Virus record (IMG/VR): IMGVR_UViG_2603880160_000004
Coordinates: 1 to 64,000 of that record
Direction: 5' to 3' (one strand)
Length of the DNA stretch: 64,000 bases
DNA from: a virus
Lineage: Duplodnaviria > Caudoviricetes
Shown piece by piece: positions 9,799 to 22,048 of the stretch. The notes below the pieces were generated by a model, which saw nothing but the letters and a program-made list of their open reading frames with translations, did no database searches and was not told the DNA's origin. The translations under genes and the position numbers were made by a program. Numbering within the stretch: the first letter of the stretch is position 1; each line of letters opens with the position of its first letter.

Positions 9799-11451
9799 TT
9801 ATTCTACAATCAAATTAATTTTGTTTCCGTTTCCGTCTACCGCATCTGCCAACACTGTGTAGAATAGACCAGCGGTATTAGATATTGTTTCTTTTGGTAT
9901 AAAGGTTAATTTATATGGTGTACCAATTTTAATTCTTGCCGTTTTAGTTTGATCCATTGAACCGAATGTTAATCTACCTTCTCCGTTTGTTGAGAAGTTA
10001 GTTACATTGGGTCCTGCATCAAATGATATATTATCAAAGGTTAATTTTGAATTGTCATATTGTAAGATAACCTCTAAACCTGCTAACCCTTCTTTTGTTA
10101 GTGTTCCTGTTAATACGACTTTACCATTAACAATTGTAGATGTCAAACCTAATGTTGCCTTTTCAATTGTTTGAGTATATGACATTGATTGAACGCTAAA
10201 TGACTTAATCGTTGATGTACTTTTTTCATTAATTGAATTGGAATAATTTCCAGTAGAAACTCTACTTGCAATTGTATCAGGATGTGATGAATGTGACCAA
10301 TCTAAATCACCTCCCCAAGCATATACCATATCCACCGCCTGATTTGAACTTGTTACTTTTGTTTTGTAAGTAGGAACACCATCTAACCAACTTTGATTTA
10401 ATAAACCACTAAACCATTTGTATAATCCACTATTTGTACTCAACGGAATCCATGCACTATCTTTTACATTCGCAACACCCATTACATACGCAAATGAGTA
10501 ATATGAATCACTTTCACTAAATAAACCTTTATTTTTTGTAATCAATCCTATCTTTTTTTCCAATACAGGTCTTGTAAAATATGTAGCAGTACCATTGATA
10601 TTGGTTTGTGAGATACCTAAAAATGATTTATATGCGTCTGATACTGTTATTATATTATTCATAAATGTCTTTCCAGTTGCACCATACATCCATACTGCCA
10701 AACTATCACCAACTTTAACTTCCGTTGTAAATGTTGCCTCACCACTTGCGTCCAATGATTTTGTTGCAATTGGTGTTACATTAAAATCAATAGTACCATC
10801 GGTTTTTATTGGAAATAACGCAACACTATGTGCTGTAATGTCATATCCTGATGGGAATAAAACTCTTACTTTAAATTGAGATGTATTACCTGTGACGTTA
10901 GATAATGACATTGTTCCAGGATCAGTAGTAATTGGTGTTATATAAGCACTTGTTGCATCAATTGAATATGATAAGTCCAATTTATGAATATCGGTATATG
11001 CACCCAAATCTTTAATTACATATTTTTGAGTTGCAACATCTCCGTTGATTGACGCATCGGTTCTTTGTACAGTCAATTGACCTACATTCCAATCTGCGTT
11101 AGTTGCATATGACCAAGGTGATACTAAATATTGTGCATATAAATCTTTAGCAGTAATACTATTTGCAGTACTTGCCGTAAATCTATATGACGACCAACCT
11201 GTATAGAATGTTTGAACTGATGTTCCTTGGGAGAATGTTGTTGAAACATATGCAAGTGCCTTATTATTAAATTGGTATCTTAACCAAAAATAACGAGGTG
11301 TAGTTGTACCTCTTGCAACTGTATACTTTACAGAAATTGTATCACCAACTTTTAATCCTGTTGTAGGTGTTACAGATTGGTTTACCGTTAATTGTGCGTT
11401 TGTTGCTATGGATATTACTAGTATTCCAATTAGCGTTAATAGTTTTTTCAT
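9799..11451 (-). CDS. Secreted protein with cohesin-like domains, partial paralog of 7186-9795
   Basis: Signal peptide; ITVSDAY, GGDLDWSHS and GLEVILQYDNSKLTF match the neighbouring gene. Confidence 0.7.
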   Translation of the reverse strand: MKKLLTLIGILVISIATNAQLTVNQSVTPTTGLKVGDTISVKYTVARGTTTPRYFWLRYQFNNKALAYVSTTFSQGTSVQTFYTGWSSYRFTASTANSITAKDLYAQYLVSPWSYATNADWNVGQLTVQRTDASINGDVATQKYVIKDLGAYTDIHKLDLSYSIDATSAYITPITTDPGTMSLSNVTGNTSQFKVRVLFPSGYDITAHSVALFPIKTDGTIDFNVTPIATKSLDASGEATFTTEVKVGDSLAVWMYGATGKTFMNNIITVSDAYKSFLGISQTNINGTATYFTRPVLEKKIGLITKNKGLFSESDSYYSFAYVMGVANVKDSAWIPLSTNSGLYKWFSGLLNQSWLDGVPTYKTKVTSSNQAVDMVYAWGGDLDWSHSSHPDTIASRVSTGNYSNSINEKSTSTIKSFSVQSMSYTQTIEKATLGLTSTIVNGKVVLTGTLTKEGLAGLEVILQYDNSKLTFDNISFDAGPNVTNFSTNGEGRLTFGSMDQTKTARIKIGTPYKLTFIPKETISNTAGLFYTVLADAVDGNGNKINLIVE

Positions 11452-11453
11452 AC

Positions 11454-12101
11454 TTACTTATCAAATAATTTAGTTATTAATTTATCTGCCGATTTTTTTA
11501 AGGCATTACTAAGTGACGTTTGATTAAATTGACCTCCTTCGTCCACGATTAATGTTGACATGGATATTTCTGAAGATGATTCCTCAACCATTATTTCTTT
11601 TTCTTTCTTACCATCCTTATATAAAGTTCCTTTCATACGAATGACAACTTCTTCTTCATTTTTGTGAAAAACCGAAATGTTCTTTTTTGTTGTTAGAACA
11701 TCTAAAAAAATAATTTGAACTTTTAATTTGTACGGTGCTGATGGTGTCAAATCATACCCTTTCTCCTGTAAGAATTCTTCTAATGTGTTTTTAACACCGA
11801 AAGCTAAGTTTCTATTACCGGCCAATTTACCCATCTTAACTTCATTGGTAACACTTTCAACCCAAATGTGGTCTTCAGCCACATAGAATATGTTTTCAGG
11901 TGAGTTTTTGAATGTACCATCAATTCTCCACGAAATCCAATTTGATATGTCTCTTGTTATTTCTCTATTACCTGAAAATTCCAAGACCGCCATGGAAATT
12001 CCAAATAGAACTGCAAATATTACCCATGTAATTGCTAAGTATAAAAAACCTAAAAAGATTTTATCACTTATGTTGTTTGTTAATGTTCTTAATTTTTCCA
12101 T
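11454..12101 (-). CDS. Membrane-anchored CsgG/TolB-N-like protein
   Basis: N-terminal TM; FGVKNTLEEFL...FNQTSLSNALKKS resembles the C-terminus of 1390-2109 (FNQSTISIATKKA). Confidence 0.5.
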   Translation of the reverse strand: MEKLRTLTNNISDKIFLGFLYLAITWVIFAVLFGISMAVLEFSGNREITRDISNWISWRIDGTFKNSPENIFYVAEDHIWVESVTNEVKMGKLAGNRNLAFGVKNTLEEFLQEKGYDLTPSAPYKLKVQIIFLDVLTTKKNISVFHKNEEEVVIRMKGTLYKDGKKEKEIMVEESSSEISMSTLIVDEGGQFNQTSLSNALKKSADKLITKLFDK

Positions 12102-12257
12102 ATTGTCCTAAGTTTAAAATTCTCTCAGGACTACACATTAATATAATATGTCATATCTTGAGAGAGATACGTTTATTTTTTGTCTGTTTATAAATACTTT
12201 ACTTTAATGGACTGACAATAGTCATTCGTAATTTTTTAACAAATAATTAATCTTTTT

Positions 12258-12289
12258 CTTGTTTATGTATATATTTATATGTATCTTTG
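12258..12289 (+). promoter_or_regulatory. Bacteroidota sigma-A-type promoter overlapping a TATTTATA motif
   Basis: cTTG 12258-61, 20 nt, TATCTTTG 12282-89; TATTTATA 12272-79. Confidence 0.65.
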
Positions 12290-12319
12290 TAAAAAGAAAG
12301 AAAAATTAAACAAAATTCA

Positions 12320-12415
12320 ATGAGACAATTTACACATACAACGTCACCGATGAACCAACAAAATTGGAATGACAGTTCTATGTCCATATGTCTTGATGAT
12401 ACTGATGTAGGTTAA
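12320..12415 (+). CDS. Putative leader peptide (31 aa) of the tRNA operon
   Basis: MRQFTHTTSPMNQQNWNDSSMSICLDDTDVG between promoter and terminator, A-rich upstream context. Confidence 0.5.
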   Translation: MRQFTHTTSPMNQQNWNDSSMSICLDDTDVG

Positions 12416-12438
12416 TTTAGTTTAACTTAAAATATTAG

Positions 12439-12477
12439 AAAACCTCGGGACTTAAAAATCTCGGGGTTTTTTGTTTT
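12439..12477 (+). terminator. Intrinsic terminator/attenuator before the first tRNA
   Basis: AAAACCTCGGGA-loop-TCTCGGGGTTTT followed by T tract. Confidence 0.75.
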
Positions 12478-12484
12478 ATACATA

Positions 12485-12561
12485 TAGGGTAATGGACTAA
12501 TGGCTAAGTCACTTGCTTTGGGAGCAAGGCATCATGGAGGTTCGAGTCCTCTTTACCCTAC
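12485..12561 (+). tRNA. tRNA-Pro(TGG)
   Basis: Acceptor TAGGGTA/TACCCTA; anticodon arm CTTGC-TTTGGGA-GCAAG; GGTTCGAGTCC. Confidence 0.9.
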
Positions 12562-12568
12562 AAACATA

Positions 12569-12639
12569 TCCGGTTTGGTGCAATGGCAGCATGAAGGTCT
12601 CCAAAACCTTTGATTACAGTTCGAGTCTGTAAACCGGTG
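12569..12639 (+). tRNA. tRNA-Trp(CCA)
   Basis: AAGGT-CTCCAAA-ACCTT; T arm TACAG-TTCGAGT-CTGTA. Confidence 0.9.
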
Positions 12640-12644
12640 CAAAG

Positions 12645-12715
12645 TGTCCTTTAGTATAGTGGTAGTACAGATGGTTTTGGTCCATCTAGCTGTGGTTCGA
12701 GCCCACGAGGGACAA
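12645..12715 (+). tRNA. tRNA-Gln(TTG)
   Basis: TGTCCTT/AGGGACA; GATGG-TTTTGGT-CCATC. Confidence 0.9.
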
Positions 12716-12722
12716 CTAACAT

Positions 12723-12795
12723 GGTGATTATAGCCTAACGGTTAAGGTGGAAGCTTGTGGCGCTTCAGATGTGAGTTCGATTCTCACTAATCACA
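12723..12795 (+). tRNA. tRNA-His(GTG)
   Basis: G-1, GTGATTA/TAATCAC; GAAGC-TTGTGGC-GCTTC. Confidence 0.9.
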
Positions 12796-12800
12796 CATAT

Positions 12801-12901
12801 TGCGGGGAGAGAGGTCTCCCACCGGTCTCATCGGTCTTTAGGTCTTTATAGAGCTAATACCGTTAAGCCGAGTGTCTCAGGATCATTCCCTGACCCCGCA
12901 A
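12801..12901 (+). tRNA. Initiator-tRNA-Met(CAT)-like gene with 33-nt anticodon-loop insertion and reduced D arm
   Basis: TGCGGGG/CCCCGCA-A acceptor; CCGGT-CTCAT[12832-12864]AA-GCCGA; T arm TCAGG-ATCATTC-CCTGA. Confidence 0.55.
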
Positions 12902-12922
12902 CAAAAAAAAGATTTAAAATAT

Positions 12923-12974
12923 TTTGTGATTTCACAACTTATTACTATCTTTGTAAAACAATGGATCTTTGAAA
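12923..12974 (+). promoter_or_regulatory. Bacteroidota promoter plus boxA-like antitermination site
   Basis: TTTG 12923-26, 19 nt, TATCTTTG 12946-53; GATCTTTGAAA at 12964-74. Confidence 0.7.
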
Positions 12975-12989
12975 TATTGAAAATAACAC

Positions 12990-13062
12990 GCCTCGTTAGC
13001 TCAGTTGGTAGAGCAAGTCATTTGTAATGATTAGGTCTGCGGTTCAAGTCCGTAACGAGGCT
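12990..13062 (+). tRNA. tRNA-Thr(TGT)
   Basis: GCCTCGT/ACGAGGC; loop TTTGTAA; canonical D and T arms. Confidence 0.92.
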
Positions 13063-13064
13063 CA

Positions 13065-13275
13065 ACAGGTGACGACGGTGGTGTAACCCCACTGTCTATG
13101 AATCCCAAAAGATCCGTCTGACTCGCGAGGTAGGGCGGTGAGGGTAAAGTTACTATAAGTCGGGACTAATTAACCCAATACGAAAATGTAACCACCGAGT
13201 AAAGTTTGCTGAGACGTGATGTAAATCCAACCAAACTTCGGTCATGATGTACATAGATGGTACGAAAAACCTGTA
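13065..13275 (+). ncRNA. Unidentified multibranch structured RNA
   Basis: ACAGGT/ACCTGT closing stem plus several nested helices; no ORF. Confidence 0.45.
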
Positions 13276-13359
13276 ATTTTTTGAGACTAACTCAACGAGG
13301 ACTTTGTTAACCAGTGCATGACACGGAGGTGCAACTTAAGTTGGGTTGGAATCAAACAC

Positions 13360-13432
13360 GCTTCCTTAGCTCAGTTGGTAGAGCGCAAAACTGTTAATTT
13401 TGAAGTCGGGGGATCGTGACCCTCAGGGAGCG
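13360..13432 (+). tRNA. tRNA-Asn(GTT)
   Basis: GCTTCCT/AGGGAGC; CAAAA-CTGTTAA-TTTTG; atypical T loop ATCGTGA. Confidence 0.88.
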
Positions 13433-13524
13433 CAACGTGATAATCACTCCACGCAAGTGGTAAGCACCCGGCAGTAACACCGGGATGGCAATGTGATTAT
13501 TAAGAGGTAAGGAAAAGACTAATA

Positions 13525-13597
13525 GGACTTGTAGCTCAGCTGGTAGAGCAAGACACTCATAATGTCGAGGTCGGGGGATCATACCCCTCCGAGTCCA
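13525..13597 (+). tRNA. tRNA-CAT (Ile2-lysidine or elongator Met)
   Basis: GGACTTG/CGAGTCC-A; loop CTCATAA; atypical T loop ATCATAC. Confidence 0.85.
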
Positions 13598-13668
13598 CAG
13601 TAGGTGTCCAAAGCATTAAGGACTTAATGGTGGTAAAGAGTTAAATAATTAAGCCCCACCTATGAAAT

Positions 13669-13739
13669 GGACTGTTAGTTAATTAGCATAACGCTGGTTT
13701 GTCACATCAGTATGAGGGGAGCGTAACCCCTACGGTCCG
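13669..13739 (+). tRNA. tRNA-Asp(GTC)
   Basis: GGACTGT/ACGGTCC-G; CTGGT-TTGTCAC-ATCAG; atypical T loop AGCGTAA. Confidence 0.8.
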
Positions 13740-13933
13740 CACGGTTTGGTTAGTCACCGAATAGTATGTCCAATATGATGAGAAATGGTTTGACAACCAT
13801 ATGGAAACGTACATTGACGTATAGGAAGAACGTCAGGGGATATCACCCCGACCTCGTGAGGACGAAATGATTATTCCTAACCCGAAAGGGGACAGCTACG
13901 ACACCTGTGAGTTGGATAAATAAAGGTGTCAAC

Positions 13934-14022
13934 GGAGAGATGGCAGAGTTGGTCTATCGCGACAGTCTTGAAAACTGTAGACTGTAACAGGTCCGTGGGT
14001 TCGAATCCTACTCTCTCCGCCA
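13934..14022 (+). tRNA. tRNA-Ser(TGA)
   Basis: GGAGAGA/TCTCTCC-GCCA; loop CTTGAAA; long variable arm. Confidence 0.93.
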
Positions 14023-14254
14023 GTGCTGAGTTTTGGTTGATGACCGAACACTACTTCTCATCAATTTAGTGGAAACTCAGAGGAATTGACACCTCGGAAA
14101 GACGAGGATTTTTAATCACAAATAAAAATGTGAGTTATAGTAAAGTAGCCAATTATAAGCCAACATAAAGCTGTTGGGTACAGACGGAGTAATTAACCAG
14201 AGTACAGTGCACCGATTGTGATACTATAACAAATACCCATTTGAGTGATTATTT

Positions 14255-14329
14255 GTTCTTGTCGACTAAGGGTTAGGTCACCTCCCTTTCACGGAGGTAA
14301 TACGGGTTCGAATCCCGTCGGGAATACCA
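14255..14329 (+). tRNA. tRNA-Glu(TTC)
   Basis: CCTCC-CTTTCAC-GGAGG; GGTTCGAATCC; encoded CCA. Confidence 0.92.
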
Positions 14330-14380
14330 TATGTTTATTAAATAATTTTTTGTATATTATTTATATTATATTACAAAATT

Positions 14381-15280
14381 ATGAAAATATTAGTCACAGG
14401 TGGTCATGGTTTATTAGGGACTTATCTACAAAAGGAAATGGATGGGATTTATTTAAGTTCTAAAGATTTCAATTTAACAAAAGAAAGTGAGGTTATTAAA
14501 ATGTATGAAACACATCAACCAGATGTTGTGGTACACTTAGCGGGTAAAGCGGGTGGAATGTTTGATCATATGAAAAATCCATTTTATTATTTGGAAGAGA
14601 ATATCTTAATGAATACATATGTAATGAAATATGCTCACGAATTTAATGTAAAAAAATTCGTAGGTACATTATCAACATGTATATATCGTGATGTTGCTGA
14701 AAATTATCCATTGGTTGAAGAAGAATTATATGAAGGTCAACCACATGAATTTCATATTGGTTATGCTTATTCAAAAAGATTAATGGGTATACATATTAAT
14801 GTGGCAAAAAAACAAGGACTTAATTATTCTTATGTTGTTCCATCTAATTTATATGGTTTATATGAAACGGGTGATATAACAAGAAAACATTTTGTTGGGG
14901 CGTTAATTGATAAAATTATTAAGGCCAATATTAATGGAGATAAGAAAATTACAATTTTAGGTGATGGATCACCATTAAGACAATTCACATATACTGAAGA
15001 TGTTGCGAAAATTATTGCAAGAGTAGTTAAAGAAGATGTTAGTGTTAATATGAATATCGCCACACCTGAAAATTTATCGATAGCCGAAATGGTTAGACAG
15101 GCATTAATTGCGACCGACTCACAACATCTTGAAGTTGAATGGGATACAACACAACCTAATGGTCAATATAGAAAAGATGTTAGTATTGAAAAATTACAAA
15201 CATCATTTCCTGACTTTCAATTTACATCGTTTGTAGATGGAATAAGAAAAACACACGAAGAATTAAAAAAGAAATACTAA
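14381..15280 (+). CDS. fcl: GDP-L-fucose synthase family epimerase/reductase
   Basis: ILVTGGHGLLG, HLAGKAGG, STCIY, YAYSKR, PSNLYG, GDGSPLRQF, QPNGQYRK. Confidence 0.85.
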   Translation: MKILVTGGHGLLGTYLQKEMDGIYLSSKDFNLTKESEVIKMYETHQPDVVVHLAGKAGGMFDHMKNPFYYLEENILMNTYVMKYAHEFNVKKFVGTLSTCIYRDVAENYPLVEEELYEGQPHEFHIGYAYSKRLMGIHINVAKKQGLNYSYVVPSNLYGLYETGDITRKHFVGALIDKIIKANINGDKKITILGDGSPLRQFTYTEDVAKIIARVVKEDVSVNMNIATPENLSIAEMVRQALIATDSQHLEVEWDTTQPNGQYRKDVSIEKLQTSFPDFQFTSFVDGIRKTHEELKKKY

Positions 15281-15996
15281 TGAAAAAAATGGCGGTTTTA
15301 ATTAATGGTGAATTTAGAGAATTCGATATCGCCATTAAATCTTGGAAATTTATCAATGAAATTGATTGTGATATCTATGTCTCAACATGGGATAAAACAA
15401 TACAAATTAATAAAAAATTAAATGTACATATTGAAGAAGATATCACCGAAGATAATATCAAAAAACATTTTCCAAATGCAACTGTTTCAATTTTAAAACA
15501 AAGTGATTACGATTTTTCATTTGAAACAAGTTGGCACAATGCTAAACAAATATTTCATTGGAAAAATTCATTAAGAATGATGAAAGAAAGTGGAATTGAG
15601 TATGATGTGGTTATGATGACAAGACCCGATAACTATATTCATTGTGCATTTAGTTCTGAAGATTTTTTTACAATGAATGAAGAAAAAACATTACATGGTC
15701 CGTTGGCAATACACGTGTCTGGACCAAATAAACAATATTTTGTTTTGGATTATTTTTTTGTAGGGTCGGTGGAAAGTATTTCAAGAATGGTTGAGACAAT
15801 ACCCGATAGAATGGATGGTAATATTCACGGTGAATTATCAAGACACATACTTTCTTTAGATATGTTCGTTAAACCTCTACAAGAGTTTAGACAAACAGTT
15901 GTGAGACCTACTTTAAGAGGAATTGAAAATGTGGATATTGATTTGGTGGATAAGAAATTTTGGGAGTGGGGTCAAAATCACGTTAATTGGGAATAA
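15280..15996 (+). CDS. Putative glycosyltransferase-like protein
   Basis: AVLINGEFR, DIYVSTW, YDVVMMTRPD pattern common in phage sugar clusters. Confidence 0.55.
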   Translation: MKKMAVLINGEFREFDIAIKSWKFINEIDCDIYVSTWDKTIQINKKLNVHIEEDITEDNIKKHFPNATVSILKQSDYDFSFETSWHNAKQIFHWKNSLRMMKESGIEYDVVMMTRPDNYIHCAFSSEDFFTMNEEKTLHGPLAIHVSGPNKQYFVLDYFFVGSVESISRMVETIPDRMDGNIHGELSRHILSLDMFVKPLQEFRQTVVRPTLRGIENVDIDLVDKKFWEWGQNHVNWE

Positions 15997-16047
15997 ATTA
16001 TTTTGTTTTTAGAATAAGTTGATATATCTTTGTAAAAAATAAGAATT

Positions 16048-16278
16048 ATGTTAGTCGGATATTATGTTATTTGTGTCATTTATTGTTTCTACCAATTATT
16101 TAAAAATTTAAATAAAAGGTATAGTAATGACCCTACAGGTGGTTCACCAGAATTAGACTCAATTATGGTATTGGTGATGGCTTGGGTATTAGCACCTATC
16201 GACGTTTCATTAACATGGATTCGTTGGTATAAAGAAGCTGAGGAAGCGAGAATAAGACAAAATAGAAGGGTTTTATAA
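16048..16278 (+). CDS. Small membrane protein
   Basis: Two hydrophobic segments; TATCTTTG promoter element upstream. Confidence 0.6.
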   Translation: MLVGYYVICVIYCFYQLFKNLNKRYSNDPTGGSPELDSIMVLVMAWVLAPIDVSLTWIRWYKEAEEARIRQNRRVL

Positions 16279-16444
16279 GATATGGGTCTACGATGGAAGA
16301 CCACAAGGAGAATAGATGTTTTTCATCCATCGAATGTCAATAGTGCTGACTGCTACGGAGAGACAAGACAGAAGTGAAGGAACTGTCCCTATTGATTATT
16401 TTGTTTTCTAAAAAAAAATTCTTATATTATTAAAAATATAAACT

Positions 16445-16669
16445 ATGAAATGTATTAAGTTAATCAAGGCTAGTAAGGGACACGAAATAGGTGAAATGTC
16501 AAGAACCGAAGATAATGAAGCGGAATTAAGAGTTAAGGGTGGTAATTGGGCATTTGCACCAAAAACCGAATATAAACTATATAAAAATCCTGAGTATAAA
16601 ACTAAGAAAGAAACTGTTAAAGTTCAATCTAAAAAACAAGGGAAAAAAAATAAAGTTGAAAATAGTTAA
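16445..16669 (+). CDS. Hypothetical Lys-rich protein
   Basis: 74-aa ORF with A-rich start context. Confidence 0.6.
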   Translation: MKCIKLIKASKGHEIGEMSRTEDNEAELRVKGGNWAFAPKTEYKLYKNPEYKTKKETVKVQSKKQGKKNKVENS

Positions 16670-16760
16670 GAAATAATTTTGAATATTAAAAAAGATTTCT
16701 TATCTTTGTAAAAGAAGGGTGAATAACCTGAAAGACAATAACAGTTCTTTGAATTAAAAA

Positions 16761-17575
16761 TATTGGCCGTCTATAGTCAATAAAATAAACCATGAAAGTG
16801 GGATAAAGTGAGGAGTCCTTGGTTGGGACAAATTGCGGATTCAGTAATGGATCTCGAGTAGACAAGTGGAATATCATTTGACCTGAAGTAGTGAGGGTAA
16901 CTCCGTAGCGAAAGGGTTGGATGACCAAGCAATCCGAGTTGTTTGGTTGAGATGGGAACATCAACAAGAATAATCCATAGAGTTCATGTAAGAAGTATAG
17001 TTATCCAACTATATCATTGCGTAATTCAATACAATGGTGGTCTTAAAACTGTAGCGTCGTAAGACGGAAAGTATGACAAAAAACAGATGGTGCTGTTAGT
17101 GTCCTTGAATAAATCCTACCAAGGGTTTAATCTCGAAGGAAACCAAAAATATGATGACAGGGATGTCGTATCGGGTAGTTTAGTATCGAGTCGCTCAAAA
17201 GGTGATTTGGCTGGTCACGAACCGCTACCTGGATAATTCGGAAACTAAATTTTTATTTTGGTATAAAAATCATACATAAAAAGAAAAAGTGTTCGTGCGT
17301 GGTGTTCGATAGGTCACTACATAGTTGTGAGGGGTTCACAGCCATAAAGGGTCTCAAGCCCAATATGATTTTTAAGAAAGTTCTCTAAACCCGCAAGGTT
17401 GAATCAGGTCGGCAGATTTGATGAGTGATGAGTATTAATAGAGTAGGATATCACGAAAGGATTGGTTAATCTAATTAACCGTGACTGAAACTTACAAATC
17501 AAAAGTTTGTGGAAATAAGGGGAAACAAATAATCCTTTTAAAGAGTTTCATTAAGACATGTATTCTCAGTGTTTT
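16761..17575 (+). ncRNA. Large (~800 nt) structured ncRNA, probably GOLLD
   Basis: ORF-poor, GC-raised, many hairpins; promoter TTTG-N19-TATCTTTG (16678-16708), boxA GTTCTTTGA (16744); motifs ACAGATGGTGCTG and terminal GTATTCTCAG resemble GOLLD as recalled; near tRNAs. Confidence 0.6.
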
Positions 17576-17642
17576 ATTTTCTTTGTTTAGTAAAACAAAG
17601 TGGTGGTGAATGTATGTAAAACCATACGGCCTATACAAAATC

Positions 17643-17668
17643 AGTCAGAAGAAATTCTGACTTTTTTT
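17643..17668 (+). terminator. Intrinsic terminator of the large ncRNA
   Basis: AGTCAGAA-GAAA-TTCTGACT + T tract. Confidence 0.8.
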
Positions 17669-17702
17669 ATGCATATTCAAAAAATTTTTGTATATTTGTT
17701 TT

Positions 17703-18452
17703 ATGAGATTAGTATGTATATCAGATACCCACAGCCTTCATCATCAGATGGAACATCCTTTACCAAAAGGTGATGTGTTAATCCATGCTGGCGATATCTC
17801 AAATAAAGGTGGTGAAAAAGACGTTACCGATTTTATTCATTGGTTCCAAAACTTAGGTGGTTGGGACGCTAAAATATTCATATCAGGTAATCATGATTAT
17901 TGTTTTGAAAGAATTAATAAACCTTCTTATAAGGGCACATATGGATGGTTAAGTAAATTAATGTCACCCGAGAATTTATCTCAATCAGATGTAACTTATT
18001 TGGAGGATAGTTTTATTACAATTGAAACTCCCGAGTTTTCAAGACCTATCAAATTTTATGGTAGTCCTTGGCAACCATGGTTCTACGATTGGGCTTTTAA
18101 CTTACCAAGATTAGGTGTTGAATTACAGGAGAAATGGAATATGATTCCTGAGGATACCGATGTATTAATTACACATAGTCCACCAAATGGATATGGTGAT
18201 TTAGTTAATAACTGGAGACAACCAAATACACACGTTGGGTGTGAATGTTTAACAAGTAGAATAGGTCAAATAAAACCATTAGTCAATGTATTTGGTCATA
18301 TTCATGAAGGTTATGGTATTGATTATGAGAAAAATACCTTATTTGTAAATGCCTCAATTTGTACTGATAGGTATGAACCAACTAATAAACCAATCGTCAT
18401 TGATTTAGTTGAAATTAATGGAAAAATAAATGCAATATATGTTGAAGAATAA
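17703..18452 (+). CDS. Calcineurin-like metallophosphoesterase (MPPED-type)
   Basis: ISDTH, IHAGD, GNHD, YGSPWQP, LITHSPP, FGHIHE; likely start at 17703. Confidence 0.9.
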   Translation: MRLVCISDTHSLHHQMEHPLPKGDVLIHAGDISNKGGEKDVTDFIHWFQNLGGWDAKIFISGNHDYCFERINKPSYKGTYGWLSKLMSPENLSQSDVTYLEDSFITIETPEFSRPIKFYGSPWQPWFYDWAFNLPRLGVELQEKWNMIPEDTDVLITHSPPNGYGDLVNNWRQPNTHVGCECLTSRIGQIKPLVNVFGHIHEGYGIDYEKNTLFVNASICTDRYEPTNKPIVIDLVEINGKINAIYVEE

Positions 18453-18456
18453 TGAA

Positions 18457-19119
18457 ATGGTAAGTGTGGTAATATCCACAAGAAAGATTGATCCGACATA
18501 TTACGACCATGTAAAAAGAATGTTTTCTCATCCGAACACTGAAATATTGATATATGAAAATGACGGTCAAATGTCCTTAACACAAGTTTATAACAAAGGG
18601 TTAAAAGAAAGTGTTAATGACATCGTTATTTTCATGCATGATGACCTTATTTTGGAGACATCAAATATGACACCTAAGATTGTTAAGTTATTTGAGAAAC
18701 ATCCTGAATATGGAATTATTGGAATTGCAGGGACCGATAAATTAACGAGTGGTATGTGGTGGCAAAACCGTGAAAATATGTTTGGTGTGGTTGGTCATAT
18801 CAATGAAGGTAAAAGACACGTTAATCACTATTCTAAGGGGGTATTTAACGATGTTCTTAAAGATGTTGTAATTGTGGATGGTTTGTTCTTTATGGTTCGT
18901 AAAAGTCTCATAAAGAAGGAATTTAACGAACAGTTTGAAGGGTTTCATTTCTATGATATTTCATTCTGTGTTGAGAACTATTTGGAAGGTGTTAAGATTG
19001 GATTAACCACCAAATTTGGAGTTACCCATAAATCTATAGGTATGACTAACAAACAATGGGAAAAGAATAAACTACTATTTGAGGCACTATTCGAAAAACG
19101 GTTACCCTTGACAATTTAG
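18457..19119 (+). CDS. GT-A fold glycosyltransferase-like protein
   Basis: YNKGL, IFMHDD, IIGIAG, VDGLF, GFHFYD. Confidence 0.8.
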   Translation: MVSVVISTRKIDPTYYDHVKRMFSHPNTEILIYENDGQMSLTQVYNKGLKESVNDIVIFMHDDLILETSNMTPKIVKLFEKHPEYGIIGIAGTDKLTSGMWWQNRENMFGVVGHINEGKRHVNHYSKGVFNDVLKDVVIVDGLFFMVRKSLIKKEFNEQFEGFHFYDISFCVENYLEGVKIGLTTKFGVTHKSIGMTNKQWEKNKLLFEALFEKRLPLTI

Positions 19120-19152
19120 TGATTTTTGATATATTTATATAAAACAAATTTT

Positions 19153-19350
19153 ATGAAGAAAATTATTGATTTAATTAAGAAACTTTTAGGTGCAGGAACA
19201 ATGGCTGAAAAAGCGGTAGAATTACAACAATTAGAAACTGAGGTTGTTGCCGAAGTTAAAGTTGTAAAAGAGAAAGTAGCGGAAGTTAAAGCTAAAGTTA
19301 AAAAAGTAACTGACAAAGCTCCAAAAGCAAAGAAAACCACTACTAAGTAA
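19153..19350 (+). CDS. Small basic K/V/A-rich late protein
   Basis: TATTTATA at 19132-39; histone-like tail. Confidence 0.6.
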   Translation: MKKIIDLIKKLLGAGTMAEKAVELQQLETEVVAEVKVVKEKVAEVKAKVKKVTDKAPKAKKTTTK

Positions 19351-19430
19351 TTTTTTTCTAACATATAGGTTATTCAGGGTTAAAATTAGTTTTTTAACCC
19401 TTTTTTATCTATATTTGTATTCTATTTACT

Positions 19431-19829
19431 GGGGACGCCTTGGATTTGATTTCAGGTATCAGGAGTAAATGGCACGTAGTCAGAATTCATCTATGACTTT
19501 AATCCACGGTGAAGAAAATTAAACGACAACGTTTACAACACAATGGAAATTGCAGGTGTTCTTGCAACTTCTAAAGTAGCAGCCTAATTAGATTAGCCTC
19601 TACGCACGGGTCGACGGACATATAACCTTGGAACAGAAGTCCTTACAGTGTAATACCACTTAGAGTGTTGGAGCATGACCTGATTGTCTCTTTAAAATTT
19701 AGTCAGGGACAAGTTTGTTGTTTTTCTGTGTATGAAATCAAATATTTGTCAATTGAGAACCAATTGAATAAACGTGTAGTCATTTATTGTTGAACAGGAA
19801 AGACAAGGGTTCGACTCCCTTCGTCTCCA
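19431..19829 (+). ncRNA. ssrA: tmRNA
   Basis: GGGGACG/CGTCTCC-A acceptor with G3-U70; GGATTTGA; T arm GGTTCGACTCC; tag ORF 19525-19587 DNVYNTMEIAGVLATSKVAA*. Confidence 0.9.
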
Positions 19830-19833
19830 CTTT

Positions 19834-19857
19834 AAACCCATCTTCGGATGGGTTTTT
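19834..19857 (+). terminator. tmRNA terminator
   Basis: AAACCCATC-TTCG-GATGGGTTTTT. Confidence 0.85.
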
Positions 19858-19861
19858 CTAT

Positions 19862-19957
19862 AAAACAACAAAAGGTCCGAAGACCCTTTGCCGAGATTTA
19901 GAATACCTCCTTTTCGTTATTATATTATCGTCGATGGTGACCAAACCATAAACTCTA
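19862..19957 (-). ncRNA. Candidate late small RNA complementary to the 16S rRNA 3' end
   Basis: TATTTATA at 19959-66 (-); contains AAAAGGAGGTATTCTA; ends in GGGTC-TTCG-GACCT-TTT hairpin. Confidence 0.45.
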
Positions 19958-19969
19958 ATATAAATATGT

Positions 19970-20557
19970 TTATAATTTAGAACGGAGGTGTTTTGTTACT
20001 ATTTTTTTAATGAAATTTTCTTCTAACGCCGGTGCGTTCGGTGTTAACGCCCATTGGCCAGTTTCAGACCTATAATAATATTTTGTTCCACCCCAATCTG
20101 TAATCACTTCAAAATTATTACTTCCTTTACATTTCCATTTTCCTTGAGATCTGTTGTTTTTCCCAATGTATAAGAAATCACCATTTCCCCAAAACGTAAA
20201 TTCTTCACCTGTTTTGTCAACAAAAGAATATGCATTTGGATTGTCAATTGTTTGTTGTAAATTTTTACCATTTCCACCACTATTCTTAATACAATTAAAA
20301 ACTGATGGGTCAATAGTTTGTGATGGTTTTGATAGTTGAGGTGATTGATCTGGTTGAGGTGAGAGTTGTGAAATATTTTTTTCAAAGTTTTCGTAGTCCC
20401 CCAAACCCAAAGATTGTGAATACTTGTCAAAAAATCTTTTTCTTTTGTCTGTAGTATCCATCTTTAGTTTGAATTTTTCATAATCCAATCCTAATTGAGA
20501 CACATCAAATTTATTTGTAAATTTATTCCAAATGTTTTGTAATTCTTTTTCGTTCAT
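19970..20557 (-). CDS. Hypothetical late protein
   Basis: TATTTATA upstream; C-terminal LEENFIKKIV tag; G.F..G.WK motif shared with 48180-48899. Confidence 0.7.
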   Translation of the reverse strand: MNEKELQNIWNKFTNKFDVSQLGLDYEKFKLKMDTTDKRKRFFDKYSQSLGLGDYENFEKNISQLSPQPDQSPQLSKPSQTIDPSVFNCIKNSGGNGKNLQQTIDNPNAYSFVDKTGEEFTFWGNGDFLYIGKNNRSQGKWKCKGSNNFEVITDWGGTKYYYRSETGQWALTPNAPALEENFIKKIVTKHLRSKL

Positions 20558-20569
20558 ATTATATAAATA

Positions 20570-22048
20570 TTACCAATTTTCCGCTTTTGGTTTTGATGTG
20601 TTATTATCTAAATTTTCAAGATTTAAATTTTTTAATTTTTCTAATTCAGGTGTTCCCTCTAAATCTTGTTGTACGGTTTCTTTTGAATTTTTAACTTTTT
20701 CTTCAAGATTATCTTTCGTATCTTTTATTGTTTTAATTTTTTCTCCTGTGGATTTCTTAGCAAAATCACTTGTGTTCAATAGAGCCAATAACGGTGACCA
20801 TCCAGGTAATGTTCTTAATCCACTGGAAGCTTTATGAAAACTCTCTATGTAATTAACAAAAGTATTTGGTACCAAATTCAATAAATTATCTAACCATATT
20901 ATTTCATCACCTGTAAATTGTTGTGCACTAAAATACCTTTCAAAATCTTCACCACGAGCCAATGGGAGAGATACACCTGTTTTATCTTTAATAACATTTT
21001 CTAAACCATCTAAAATAGATTTTAACGCAGCAATGACACTCGGATAAACAATTAATCCGAACAAAACCTTATCTGTAATAGTCTTACCCCAATATTTTGA
21101 TGTACCAAATACTCTCATGGTCTGTTTTGTTTCTGACAAAGTTCTTGGGTCCCATTGTAAAGCGGTGTTTATTAATCTTTTTCCAGTTTCATTACCTTTT
21201 TTAAATAGATTTTTTGGAAGTAGTTTTTTTGCTGCCTCGATTTTTTCAAATACAACTTTTGGTGGTTTTTCTAAATCCCCTTGAAAATATTTAATAAATT
21301 CTACATATTTTTTATCTTTCCAAAATCCTTTTTTAGATAGTTCCATAAATTCTTTTGGTAATTTTTTTTCTAACTCAACCCAAATAACTTTATGTTCTTG
21401 TTTATCTAATGCTGTCATCTGTGCAAAAAGTTTATTTAATTCGTCAAATTCTTTTTCAAGACCTAATGTTGATTTCTTTTTTTGTATAATTTCATTTGTT
21501 AATTTTATAACTTCTCGTTCAATTACGTCTTGTTGCTTAAGGTATTTAAAATGTGAATCTTTAACTAATTTTTTAACTAAAGGAATCATTTGTATCAATT
21601 CGGTTGCCGATAATTTCATACCATCTATAAAATTTTTAACAACTGTACTAGTTGTCCAATCCTTTGTTACCACTTTTTTTGCACTATTAACAAATGAATC
21701 CGCCAAAACTCTATAAACACCGGTCAATGTAGTTCTAACCGAACTATCATTTATATCAATTCCGTTATTTTTTAATTCGTTATATAGAATATTTCTAATT
21801 TTAGAACTTCTTAAAATCTCTTCCACATCGGCACGTGCCATTTTACTCCAATCAATAACTTGAATGGTTTTTTTAATTGGATCAAAATCAAATATACTTT
21901 TACCTAATCTTTGGGATAATCCTTCGAAATTTTTAATTAACGATTCTTCAACCTGCAATCCACTCAACGACTTTAACAATTTACCTGCAAATCTTGGCCA
22001 CGGTATATAGGCTTCGAAAAGTATTGATTTGAAATTTAATTTACTCAT
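20570..22048 (-). CDS. Large helical hypothetical protein
   Basis: 492 aa; N-terminal FKSILFE; one TM-like segment. Confidence 0.75.
   Translation of the reverse strand: MSKLNFKSILFEAYIPWPRFAGKLLKSLSGLQVEESLIKNFEGLSQRLGKSIFDFDPIKKTIQVIDWSKMARADVEEILRSSKIRNILYNELKNNGIDINDSSVRTTLTGVYRVLADSFVNSAKKVVTKDWTTSTVVKNFIDGMKLSATELIQMIPLVKKLVKDSHFKYLKQQDVIEREVIKLTNEIIQKKKSTLGLEKEFDELNKLFAQMTALDKQEHKVIWVELEKKLPKEFMELSKKGFWKDKKYVEFIKYFQGDLEKPPKVVFEKIEAAKKLLPKNLFKKGNETGKRLINTALQWDPRTLSETKQTMRVFGTSKYWGKTITDKVLFGLIVYPSVIAALKSILDGLENVIKDKTGVSLPLARGEDFERYFSAQQFTGDEIIWLDNLLNLVPNTFVNYIESFHKASSGLRTLPGWSPLLALLNTSDFAKKSTGEKIKTIKDTKDNLEEKVKNSKETVQQDLEGTPELEKLKNLNLENLDNNTSKPKAENW

Follow-up and report, generated by a model that had tools for sequence, protein, structure and literature searches.

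A probable leader-peptide attenuator reporting tRNA supply ahead of a phage tRNA array

The intergenic gap ahead of a phage transfer RNA (tRNA) array holds a short leader that is probably a ribosome-mediated, trp-type transcription attenuator reporting tRNA supply. The DNA in question, here called the window, comprises 64,000 nucleotides (nt) at the start of virus record IMGVR_UViG_2603880160_000004, which is 97,476 bases long and has a CheckV completeness of 27%. Its source is probably a very large phage, because related contigs reach 335 kb. The genes left of 12101 point leftwards, and the leader unit sits in the resulting divergent gap (12102-12485). Ten tRNA genes (12486-14329), followed by a GOLLD RNA and a transfer-messenger RNA (tmRNA), all lie to the right of this gap. 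An earlier, preliminary description, made from the letters of the window, had listed a promoter, a 31-codon open reading frame (ORF), a terminator, and the tRNAs in that order; all four lie where it had placed them, and 12320-12415 encodes exactly the peptide it quoted. The features on which the argument depends are as follows.

12259-12289, + strand: predicted Bacteroidota-type promoter, with TTG at 12259-12261, a 20-nt spacer, and the -7 box TATCTTTG at 12282-12289
12317-12327, + strand: region 1, UCA.UGAGACA including the AUG; in the minimum free energy (MFE) fold it pairs with region 2 and its flank
12320-12415, + strand: leader ORF, 31 codons plus TAA
12323-12379, + strand: sensor codons 2-20, the variable part matching tRNAs of the array
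12390-12396, + strand: region 2, GUCUUGA (GUCUCGA or GUCUCGG in relatives), codons 24-26; 5′ strand of the predicted antiterminator
12402-12438, + strand: hairpin 2, whose 5′ arm has the last codons and the stop codon (12413-12415); it stacks under the helix of regions 2 and 3
12439-12480, + strand: predicted intrinsic terminator, a 12-bp G+C-cored stem (12439-12450 with 12459-12470) with an 8-nt loop, then UUUUUUGUUUU
12445-12451, + strand: region 3, UCGGGAC, within the terminator 5′ arm
12467-12480, + strand: U-tract of the terminator; tRNA-Pro follows 5 nt later (12486)
12486-12796, + strand: first tRNA cluster, Pro(tgg), Trp(cca), Gln(ttg), His(gtg), beginning 5 nt past the U-tract, too close for a promoter to fit between
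12924-12953, + strand: another promoter of this type, followed by no leader, about 37 nt 5′ of tRNA-Thr
12990-14329, + strand: distal tRNAs Thr(tgt), Asn(gtt), Met(cat), Asp(gtc), Ser(tga), Glu(ttc)

The arrangement of these parts suggests a simple scheme. Host RNA polymerase would start at the Bacteroidota-type promoter and make the ORF of 31-32 codons, whose codons 2-20 would present roughly one codon per downstream tRNA species. A fast ribosome would occupy region 2 (12390-12396) and the stop-codon hairpin while the terminator is being made; region 3 would then pair with region 4, and transcription would stop 5 nt short of tRNA-Pro. A ribosome stalled in codons 2-20 for lack of a charged cognate tRNA would leave region 2 free to pair with the terminator 5′ arm atop hairpin 2, no terminator would form, and polymerase would enter the tRNA genes. 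A ribosome whose A site is anywhere in codons 2-19 or 2-20 would end short of 12390, taking its footprint from the coordinates, and one at codons 21-31 or at the stop codon would cover either region 2 or the 5′ side of hairpin 2 and so block the antiterminator. By coordinates, the sensor codons end about 10 nt 5′ of region 2; as a consistency check, the tRNA-matched codons stop just where stalling would no longer free region 2. The result would be a self-limiting loop in which a scarce tRNA causes stalling and tRNA synthesis, and the restored supply allows fast leader translation and termination. It is important to note that we infer leader translation, stalling, read-through, and the direction of the switch.

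The leader unit was found at about 100 viral and metagenome loci, with 49 distinct ORFs among them. With the neighboring 215-amino-acid protein as the query, 59 viral loci were obtained; at ten distinct loci of this protein, conservation from the promoter through the terminator far exceeds that of the remaining intergenic DNA; a 3-nt indel there keeps the frame, and each of the four Val codons occurs. A 17-mer from the terminator region, a probe that imposes nothing on the ORF, gave 23 viral loci, 22 with the ORF and 1 unrelated. Patterns anchored on the ORF added 1 viral contig and 51 metagenome loci, and a looser pattern added 9 loci with divergent tails, these nine having passed an ORF-length filter. 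The pattern match L235 was rejected as a family member: it lies inside a coding region with no tRNA nearby, and the pattern that gave it allowed at most 30 nt between region 2 and the terminator arm, as against about 40 nt in the family. A blastn search of 12100-14400 against 50,697 phage records returned tRNA-sized matches only, and no record covered at least 80% of the query.

Across the family, frame 1 of the leader is open in 49/49 distinct ORFs, and frames 2 and 3 are open in 0/49. The ORF has 30-32 codons and is always in frame, its indels being multiples of three. Wherever a locus extends more than 150 nt downstream, a tRNA lies directly past the terminator, and at the loci examined the ORF was never seen apart from a tRNA array. 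Relatives thus keep a leader ORF, the point on which the preliminary description had asked for a check, along with the terminator and the placement of both immediately ahead of the first tRNA. Within the ORF, the variable sensor columns mostly alter the amino acid (14/15 in class A, introduced below). The tail MSICLDDTDVG is common to most members, with all four Val codons used, and the C-terminal tails of the wider family read DDTDVG, GDINHG, GDVVLS, GDTHI, GDWNTI, and EDVILG. The 3′ untranslated region (UTR) is nearly invariant. Some relatives (L002, L005, L008, L011, and L053) have neither the leader nor the first tRNA cluster, and in these a plain promoter lies about 30-90 nt 5′ of tRNA-Thr. 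Because such close relatives are without both, the leader and the first cluster appear to be gained or lost as one module.

Variation at the margins of the unit was also noted. In L045/L046, where the start region reads AUGAAACAA in place of AUGAGACAA, an in-frame ATG right after the promoter would lengthen the leader to 57 codons. In the class-B loci L065, L084, and L166/L045, an extra 50-150 nt with an inverted repeat is found between the terminator and tRNA-Ala and could be a small mobile insertion.

In the window itself, the leader's codons favor the tRNAs that follow. The earlier count of 24 of 31 codons in families of the downstream tRNAs was reproduced by amino-acid family (23, or 24 with ATA). 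By anticodon, 20/31 codons are matched under strict wobble and 22/31 under a relaxed rule in which U34 also reads U in four-fold boxes. With 67 long ORFs as the background, the corresponding fraction is 0.378 (strict) or 0.417 (relaxed), and the binomial P values are 2e-3 and 9e-4, respectively. In a comparison with 299 small ORFs (25-45 codons), the leader's fraction is reached by 3 under the strict rule and by 1 under the relaxed rule. In the window alone, therefore, the enrichment is real but moderate, suggestive and not decisive. It had also been remarked that the peptide is without Lys and Glu; this is correct for the window, but a tRNA-Glu is present in the array and the leaders of most relatives carry Glu.

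The relatives provide a stronger case. Their leaders fall into two classes. Class A leaders (..SPMNQQNWN.. in the window) precede Pro(tgg), Asn, Trp, sometimes Leu(tag), and Gln, and class B leaders (..SFIICSKWADER..) precede Ala, Ile(gat), Phe, Lys, Trp, Arg(acg), Cys, and His. Leader codon content therefore shifts together with the tRNA set, as had been anticipated. The match was scored over the sensor, taken as codons 2 to L-11, in 38 leader-array combinations with at least 1500 nt downstream, the arrays being seen to about 2 kb at most. Leaders score 11.4 of 19-20 sensor codons against their own array and 4.9-6.5 against arrays of the other class. The observed own-array mean was reached in 0/20,000 permutations overall and in 3/20,000 within class A. 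Counted as tRNA-species cells with at least one cognate sensor codon, 300/319 (strict) or 309/319 (relaxed) are covered, compared with a mean of 140-149 and a maximum of 162-172 of the 319 for random 20-codon windows from long ORFs of the window genome. Class-B leaders cover 11-12 of 11-12 tRNA species, which none of 18,201 random windows matches; the window leader covers 9/10, which 69-168 of the 18,201 equal.

This match is at the codon level, beyond the amino-acid level. All sensor Arg codons are CGT or CGC (31/31), which Arg(acg) reads, whereas 14% of the Arg codons in the genome are CGT/CGC and 81% are AGA/AGG. Sensor Ser codons are TCN in 96/99 cases. Sensor Leu codons are CTA or CTG in 12/26, as against 9% in the genome; for the remaining TTA codons, Leu(taa) is present in the distal arrays of the 6-kb loci. 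A Leu(tag) gene within about 310 nt of the stop codon pairs with a CTR codon in 11/11 leaders, at codon 5, 8, 14, or 19, and 35 leaders have neither. The sole class-A array with Cys(gca) has a leader with TGC at codon 19, and in L107 and L204, whose arrays include Tyr(gta) and Arg(acg), the leader carries TAT and CGT where the window reads CAT and AGT. From the sequences, these co-occurrences of Leu(tag) with CTR, Cys with TGC, and Tyr-Arg with TAT-CGT look independent. Because the Ala codons of class-B leaders were without a partner, a tRNA-Ala was looked for, and the prediction held: tRNA-Ala(tgc) lies directly past the terminator in 6/6 class-B gaps tested, at the relaxed threshold of ARAGORN, the default setting of which misses it. 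Linkage accounts for the leader travelling with its array, but not for the correspondence between codons and anticodons.

The second line of evidence comes from the predicted RNA folds. The full leader folds at -45.4 kcal/mol (z = -4.29; 0/200 shuffles equal). Over 45 sequences, 100% of the cells in the terminator stem are paired, with 2 pairs changed on both sides. The competing structure is a helix of regions 2 and 3 that closes hairpin 2. It is the MFE fold of the nascent RNA 12383-12455 (-15.8 kcal/mol, pair probability 0.97-1.0), and RNAalifold yields it unprompted. All seven pairs are present in 49/51 distinct sequences, the last pair being A-U in 43, G-C in 6, and A.C in 2. Despite differing tails and hairpin sequences, 13/13 diverse variants fold alike, with the 2:3 helix closing the stop-codon hairpin and the stop codon in the 5′ arm of the apical stem. 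Region 2 is a near copy of the terminator 3′ arm, and GUCUCGA stays constant while the adjoining codon positions change amino acid (TGT/AGT/GGT; GAT/GAA/GAC). The helix of regions 1 and 2 is paired in 95.3% of cells over the 45 sequences, with no compensatory change; region 1 may tentatively be assigned, from the folding models, as an anti-antiterminator.

A different antiterminator had been put forward in the preliminary description, in which AGGTT (12409-12413) pairs with AACCT (12441-12445). Both sequences are present, but the proposed role is not supported. The helix alone amounts to -1.5 kcal/mol; when enforced, the fold reaches -8.3 kcal/mol as against -15.8 (a cost of 7.5 kcal/mol). It competes with hairpin 2, its pair probability in the nascent ensemble is about 0, and one of its five pairs is unpaired in 22/45 sequences. 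Pairing of 12390-12396 with 12445-12451 is preferred. As for the attenuator proposal as a whole, its core of a codon-mirroring leader and a terminator stands, and is stronger in the relatives than in the window, while its antiterminator is replaced.

The leader promoter is of a recognizable type. A -7 box TAnnTTTG is described as conserved in Flavobacterium and Bacteroides (PMC7641319). A Bacteroidota sigma-A promoter joins this box to a TTG near -33, and 12259-12289 has both elements. Transcription of the leader would start at about 12294-12297, and an A-rich 5′ leader separates the promoter from the ORF. Among 54 distinct contexts, TTG-N17-23-TAnnTTTG ends 20-33 nt 5′ of the ATG in 45. A sigma-70 identity was rejected: a scan gave 13 sites as against 15.8 expected from shuffles, which is uninformative, and the Bacteroidota-type motif fits instead. 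By promoter type alone, the host phylum would be Bacteroidota-type. Three further exact copies of the 13-mer TATCTTTGTAAAA, at 12946, 16025, and 16701, are likewise on the + strand and precede tRNA-Thr, a small ORF, and the GOLLD RNA, respectively. Between the stop codon and the first tRNA, TAnnTTTG occurs in 0/54 contexts; with no -7 box there, the first cluster would be made by read-through only. For a separate downstream start of the tRNAs, named beforehand as an observation that would count against attenuation, there is accordingly no promoter motif at the first cluster, but there is one ahead of the distal tRNAs. Six metatranscriptome runs contain small matching shares; in the four from which contigs were obtained, a 246-nt contig spans 12375-12479 and beyond, a contig giving neither transcript ends nor level and being open to DNA carry-over, and the other contigs are mostly tRNA look-alikes of other organisms.

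Several observations weigh against an attenuator that reports tRNA supply. The evidence consists of parts, conservation, the codon-tRNA match, and in silico pairings, and the metatranscriptome contigs show no start, end, or level. The distal tRNAs (Thr to Glu) own a separate promoter at 12924-12953. Compared over related segments, the terminator form is more stable than the antiterminator (-24.0 versus -15.8 kcal/mol), so that the switch would need kinetic control. Of 2000 shuffles of the upstream segment, 266 pair as much of the terminator arm as the 2:3 helix does. Most helix positions are invariant and covariation is thin, with 1 compensatory pair in the 2:3 helix and 2 in the terminator; the 1:2 helix is weakened in the AUGAAACAA variants. 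The codon match has its own gaps. Within class B, the permutation is not significant (2283/20,000 strict, 1743/20,000 relaxed). The window leader has no Glu codon for the tRNA-Glu of its array, L147 has Arg(acg) and His(gtg) with no cognate codons, and the distal Leu(tag) genes of L076 and L204 are not mirrored in their leaders. Conversely, the class-B loci L115, L131, L138/L142, and L150 are without Ala-Ile-Phe-Lys tRNAs and retain those codons. Finally, the sequences are not independent, since the leader is inherited together with the first cluster next to it, and arrays were viewed for at most about 2 kb downstream.

Some of these points also feed an alternative in which the same parts form a translation-coupled attenuator that senses general translation capacity, or ribosome-polymerase coupling, instead of single tRNAs, with the leader and the tRNA set both tuned to codons poorly served by the host. 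The presence of about one codon per tRNA, without the runs of classical leaders, would suit such a sensor, as would the several loci that retain codons for tRNAs no longer encoded nearby. It is difficult to reconcile with two leader classes in closely related phages whose codon content differs exactly as the adjacent arrays do, or with the pairing of the rare CTR codon and first-cluster Leu(tag) in all 11 leaders at four positions. The exclusive use of CGY for Arg (31/31), a minority codon choice in the genome, is likewise not what tuning to abundant phage codons would produce. We regard a general-capacity sensor as unlikely.

Other explanations dispense with regulation by the ribosome. The ORF could be a self-standing gene for a micro-protein, transcribed from its own promoter and with the peptide as its product; the terminator would be leaky, and the tRNAs would merely be made by read-through. 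In its favor are the frame intact in 49/49 distinct sequences and the tail common to most members, in which each of the four Val codons is used. Yet the tails differ over the wider family, the middle part is swapped between classes, and most variable columns change the amino acid. Invariance tracks the RNA motif GUCUCGA and the non-coding 3′ UTR and not codon boundaries. The ORF is never apart from a tRNA array, and the correspondence of codons with anticodons would be left unexplained, which makes a micro-protein quite improbable. Conversely, the unit could be a non-coding structured leader or small RNA, for example an element for tRNA-precursor processing or stability, in which the open frame is incidental. 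The folding energy of the whole transcript, beyond all 200 shuffles, and the almost invariant 3′ UTR speak for such an RNA, and there is a weak Rfam match to STnc180, the best within the leader; at 28.5 bits, against a gathering score of 50, this match is far under threshold. A frame open in 49/49 as against 0/49 for the other frames, indels in multiples of three, and variable codons that fit the anticodons of the array, which is sensible only if the RNA is decoded, render this the least credible of the explanations considered, and a very improbable one.

With a tRNA-supply attenuator as the preferred reading, a more general proposal can be made, towards which the evidence tips slightly. Large freshwater phages would use a codon-barcode attenuator with one probe codon per tRNA, rewritten on tRNA gain; any single shortage, whether from demand, starvation, or a tRNA-cleaving defense, would turn the whole array on, and the new tRNAs would turn it off. 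If true, this would be the first tRNA operon under leader-peptide attenuation, and a natural multi-input (OR-gate) tRNA sensor, compact and able to read many tRNA species simultaneously. The reason for tRNA genes in phages and the timing of their expression are long-standing questions, and the genome studied here points to feedback from tRNA supply. The proposal makes it testable whether phage tRNA arrays are induced once host defenses or infection deplete tRNAs. In addition, the leader sequence could predict the tRNAs of a phage array, as it already did for tRNA-Ala.

Further structured elements surround the leader. Directly 3′ of tRNA-His, 12800-12905 forms a structured element (MFE -41.7 kcal/mol, z = -3.72) with a closing stem GCGGGG/CCCCGC and three inner arms, cloverleaf-like with a long middle arm; it receives no tRNA or Rfam call and is followed by an A-run, not a T-run. 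The long inter-tRNA spacers (13064-13359, 13741-13933, and 14023-14254) are less A+T-rich than the remaining region, and for 13064-13359 the predicted fold is no more stable than in shuffles (z = -0.14). The copy of TATCTTTGTAAAA at 16025 heads a small ORF (16049-16279) with a hydrophobic N terminus, and a second small ORF lies at 16446-16669. The GOLLD RNA (16701-17668) scores 302 bits in Rfam over 17171-17572; it probably begins close to 16715 and runs to a hairpin and T-run near 17644-17668. A phage-encoded tmRNA at 19431-19830 (ARAGORN; Rfam, 85 bits), with the tag peptide DNVYNTMEIAGVLATSKVAA, lies a few kilobases from the tRNA array.

The closest known systems are the leader-peptide transcription attenuators of amino-acid operons, of which E. 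coli trpL is the type and the his, leu, thr, ilv, and pheA leaders are further examples. As in these, the phage leader has a promoter, a short ORF, an intrinsic terminator, and the genes to be regulated in that order; one segment has a choice of two partners, the first upstream of it and the second the terminator 5′ arm; and the regulatory codons are placed so that a stalled ribosome would free the antiterminator. The structural features of a leader-peptide attenuator are accordingly found here: a short ORF before the genes, an intrinsic terminator between the ORF and the genes, and, in silico, an exclusive antiterminator on the terminator 5′ arm and codons tied to the regulated function. Unlike the trp-type leaders, the phage leader would control tRNA genes instead of biosynthetic enzymes, and its sensor mixes about one codon for each of 9-13 tRNA species in place of a run of a single codon. 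Region 2 falls within the ORF, 5′ of the stop codon, which is itself enclosed in a conserved hairpin belonging to the predicted antiterminator. The phage would also belong to a Bacteroidota-type host, judged by promoter type alone. The 105 nt 5′ of pheV in E. coli K-12, the one gene inspected for a possible tRNA-Phe leader, hold no annotated or obvious leader ORF or terminator.

T-box riboswitches offer a second comparison. They recognize a single uncharged tRNA by direct contact, using a specifier loop and the T-box sequence, and need no translation; they control synthetase and amino-acid genes but not tRNA genes. In both systems tRNA status would set the choice between terminator and antiterminator in a 5′ leader; in contrast to T-boxes, the phage leader has a conserved frame, predicted to be translated. 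A cmscan search of 11000-21000 with E up to 1 returned the GOLLD RNA, the tmRNA, tRNAs, and chance-level matches, with no Rfam leader family or T-box among them.

Phage tRNA arrays have been interpreted, in the accessible parts of two studies, as a codon supplement or as a counter-defense against tRNA-cleaving systems (PMC10264068, eLife 2023; PMC11555353, Nat Commun 2024). The array described here resembles those in that a phage's own tRNAs would sustain translation when host tRNAs are unsuitable or destroyed. The accessible parts of both articles concern what the tRNAs do and present no sensor that controls them, and attenuation, terminators, and leaders are not mentioned in PMC10264068. Full-text literature searches, with subscription journals largely outside their scope, gave no tRNA genes under leader-peptide attenuation. 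The phage leader would differ from known attenuators in two properties, namely tRNA genes as the target and about one codon for each of many tRNA species as the sensor; if confirmed, it would extend leader-peptide attenuation beyond amino-acid operons to tRNA genes.

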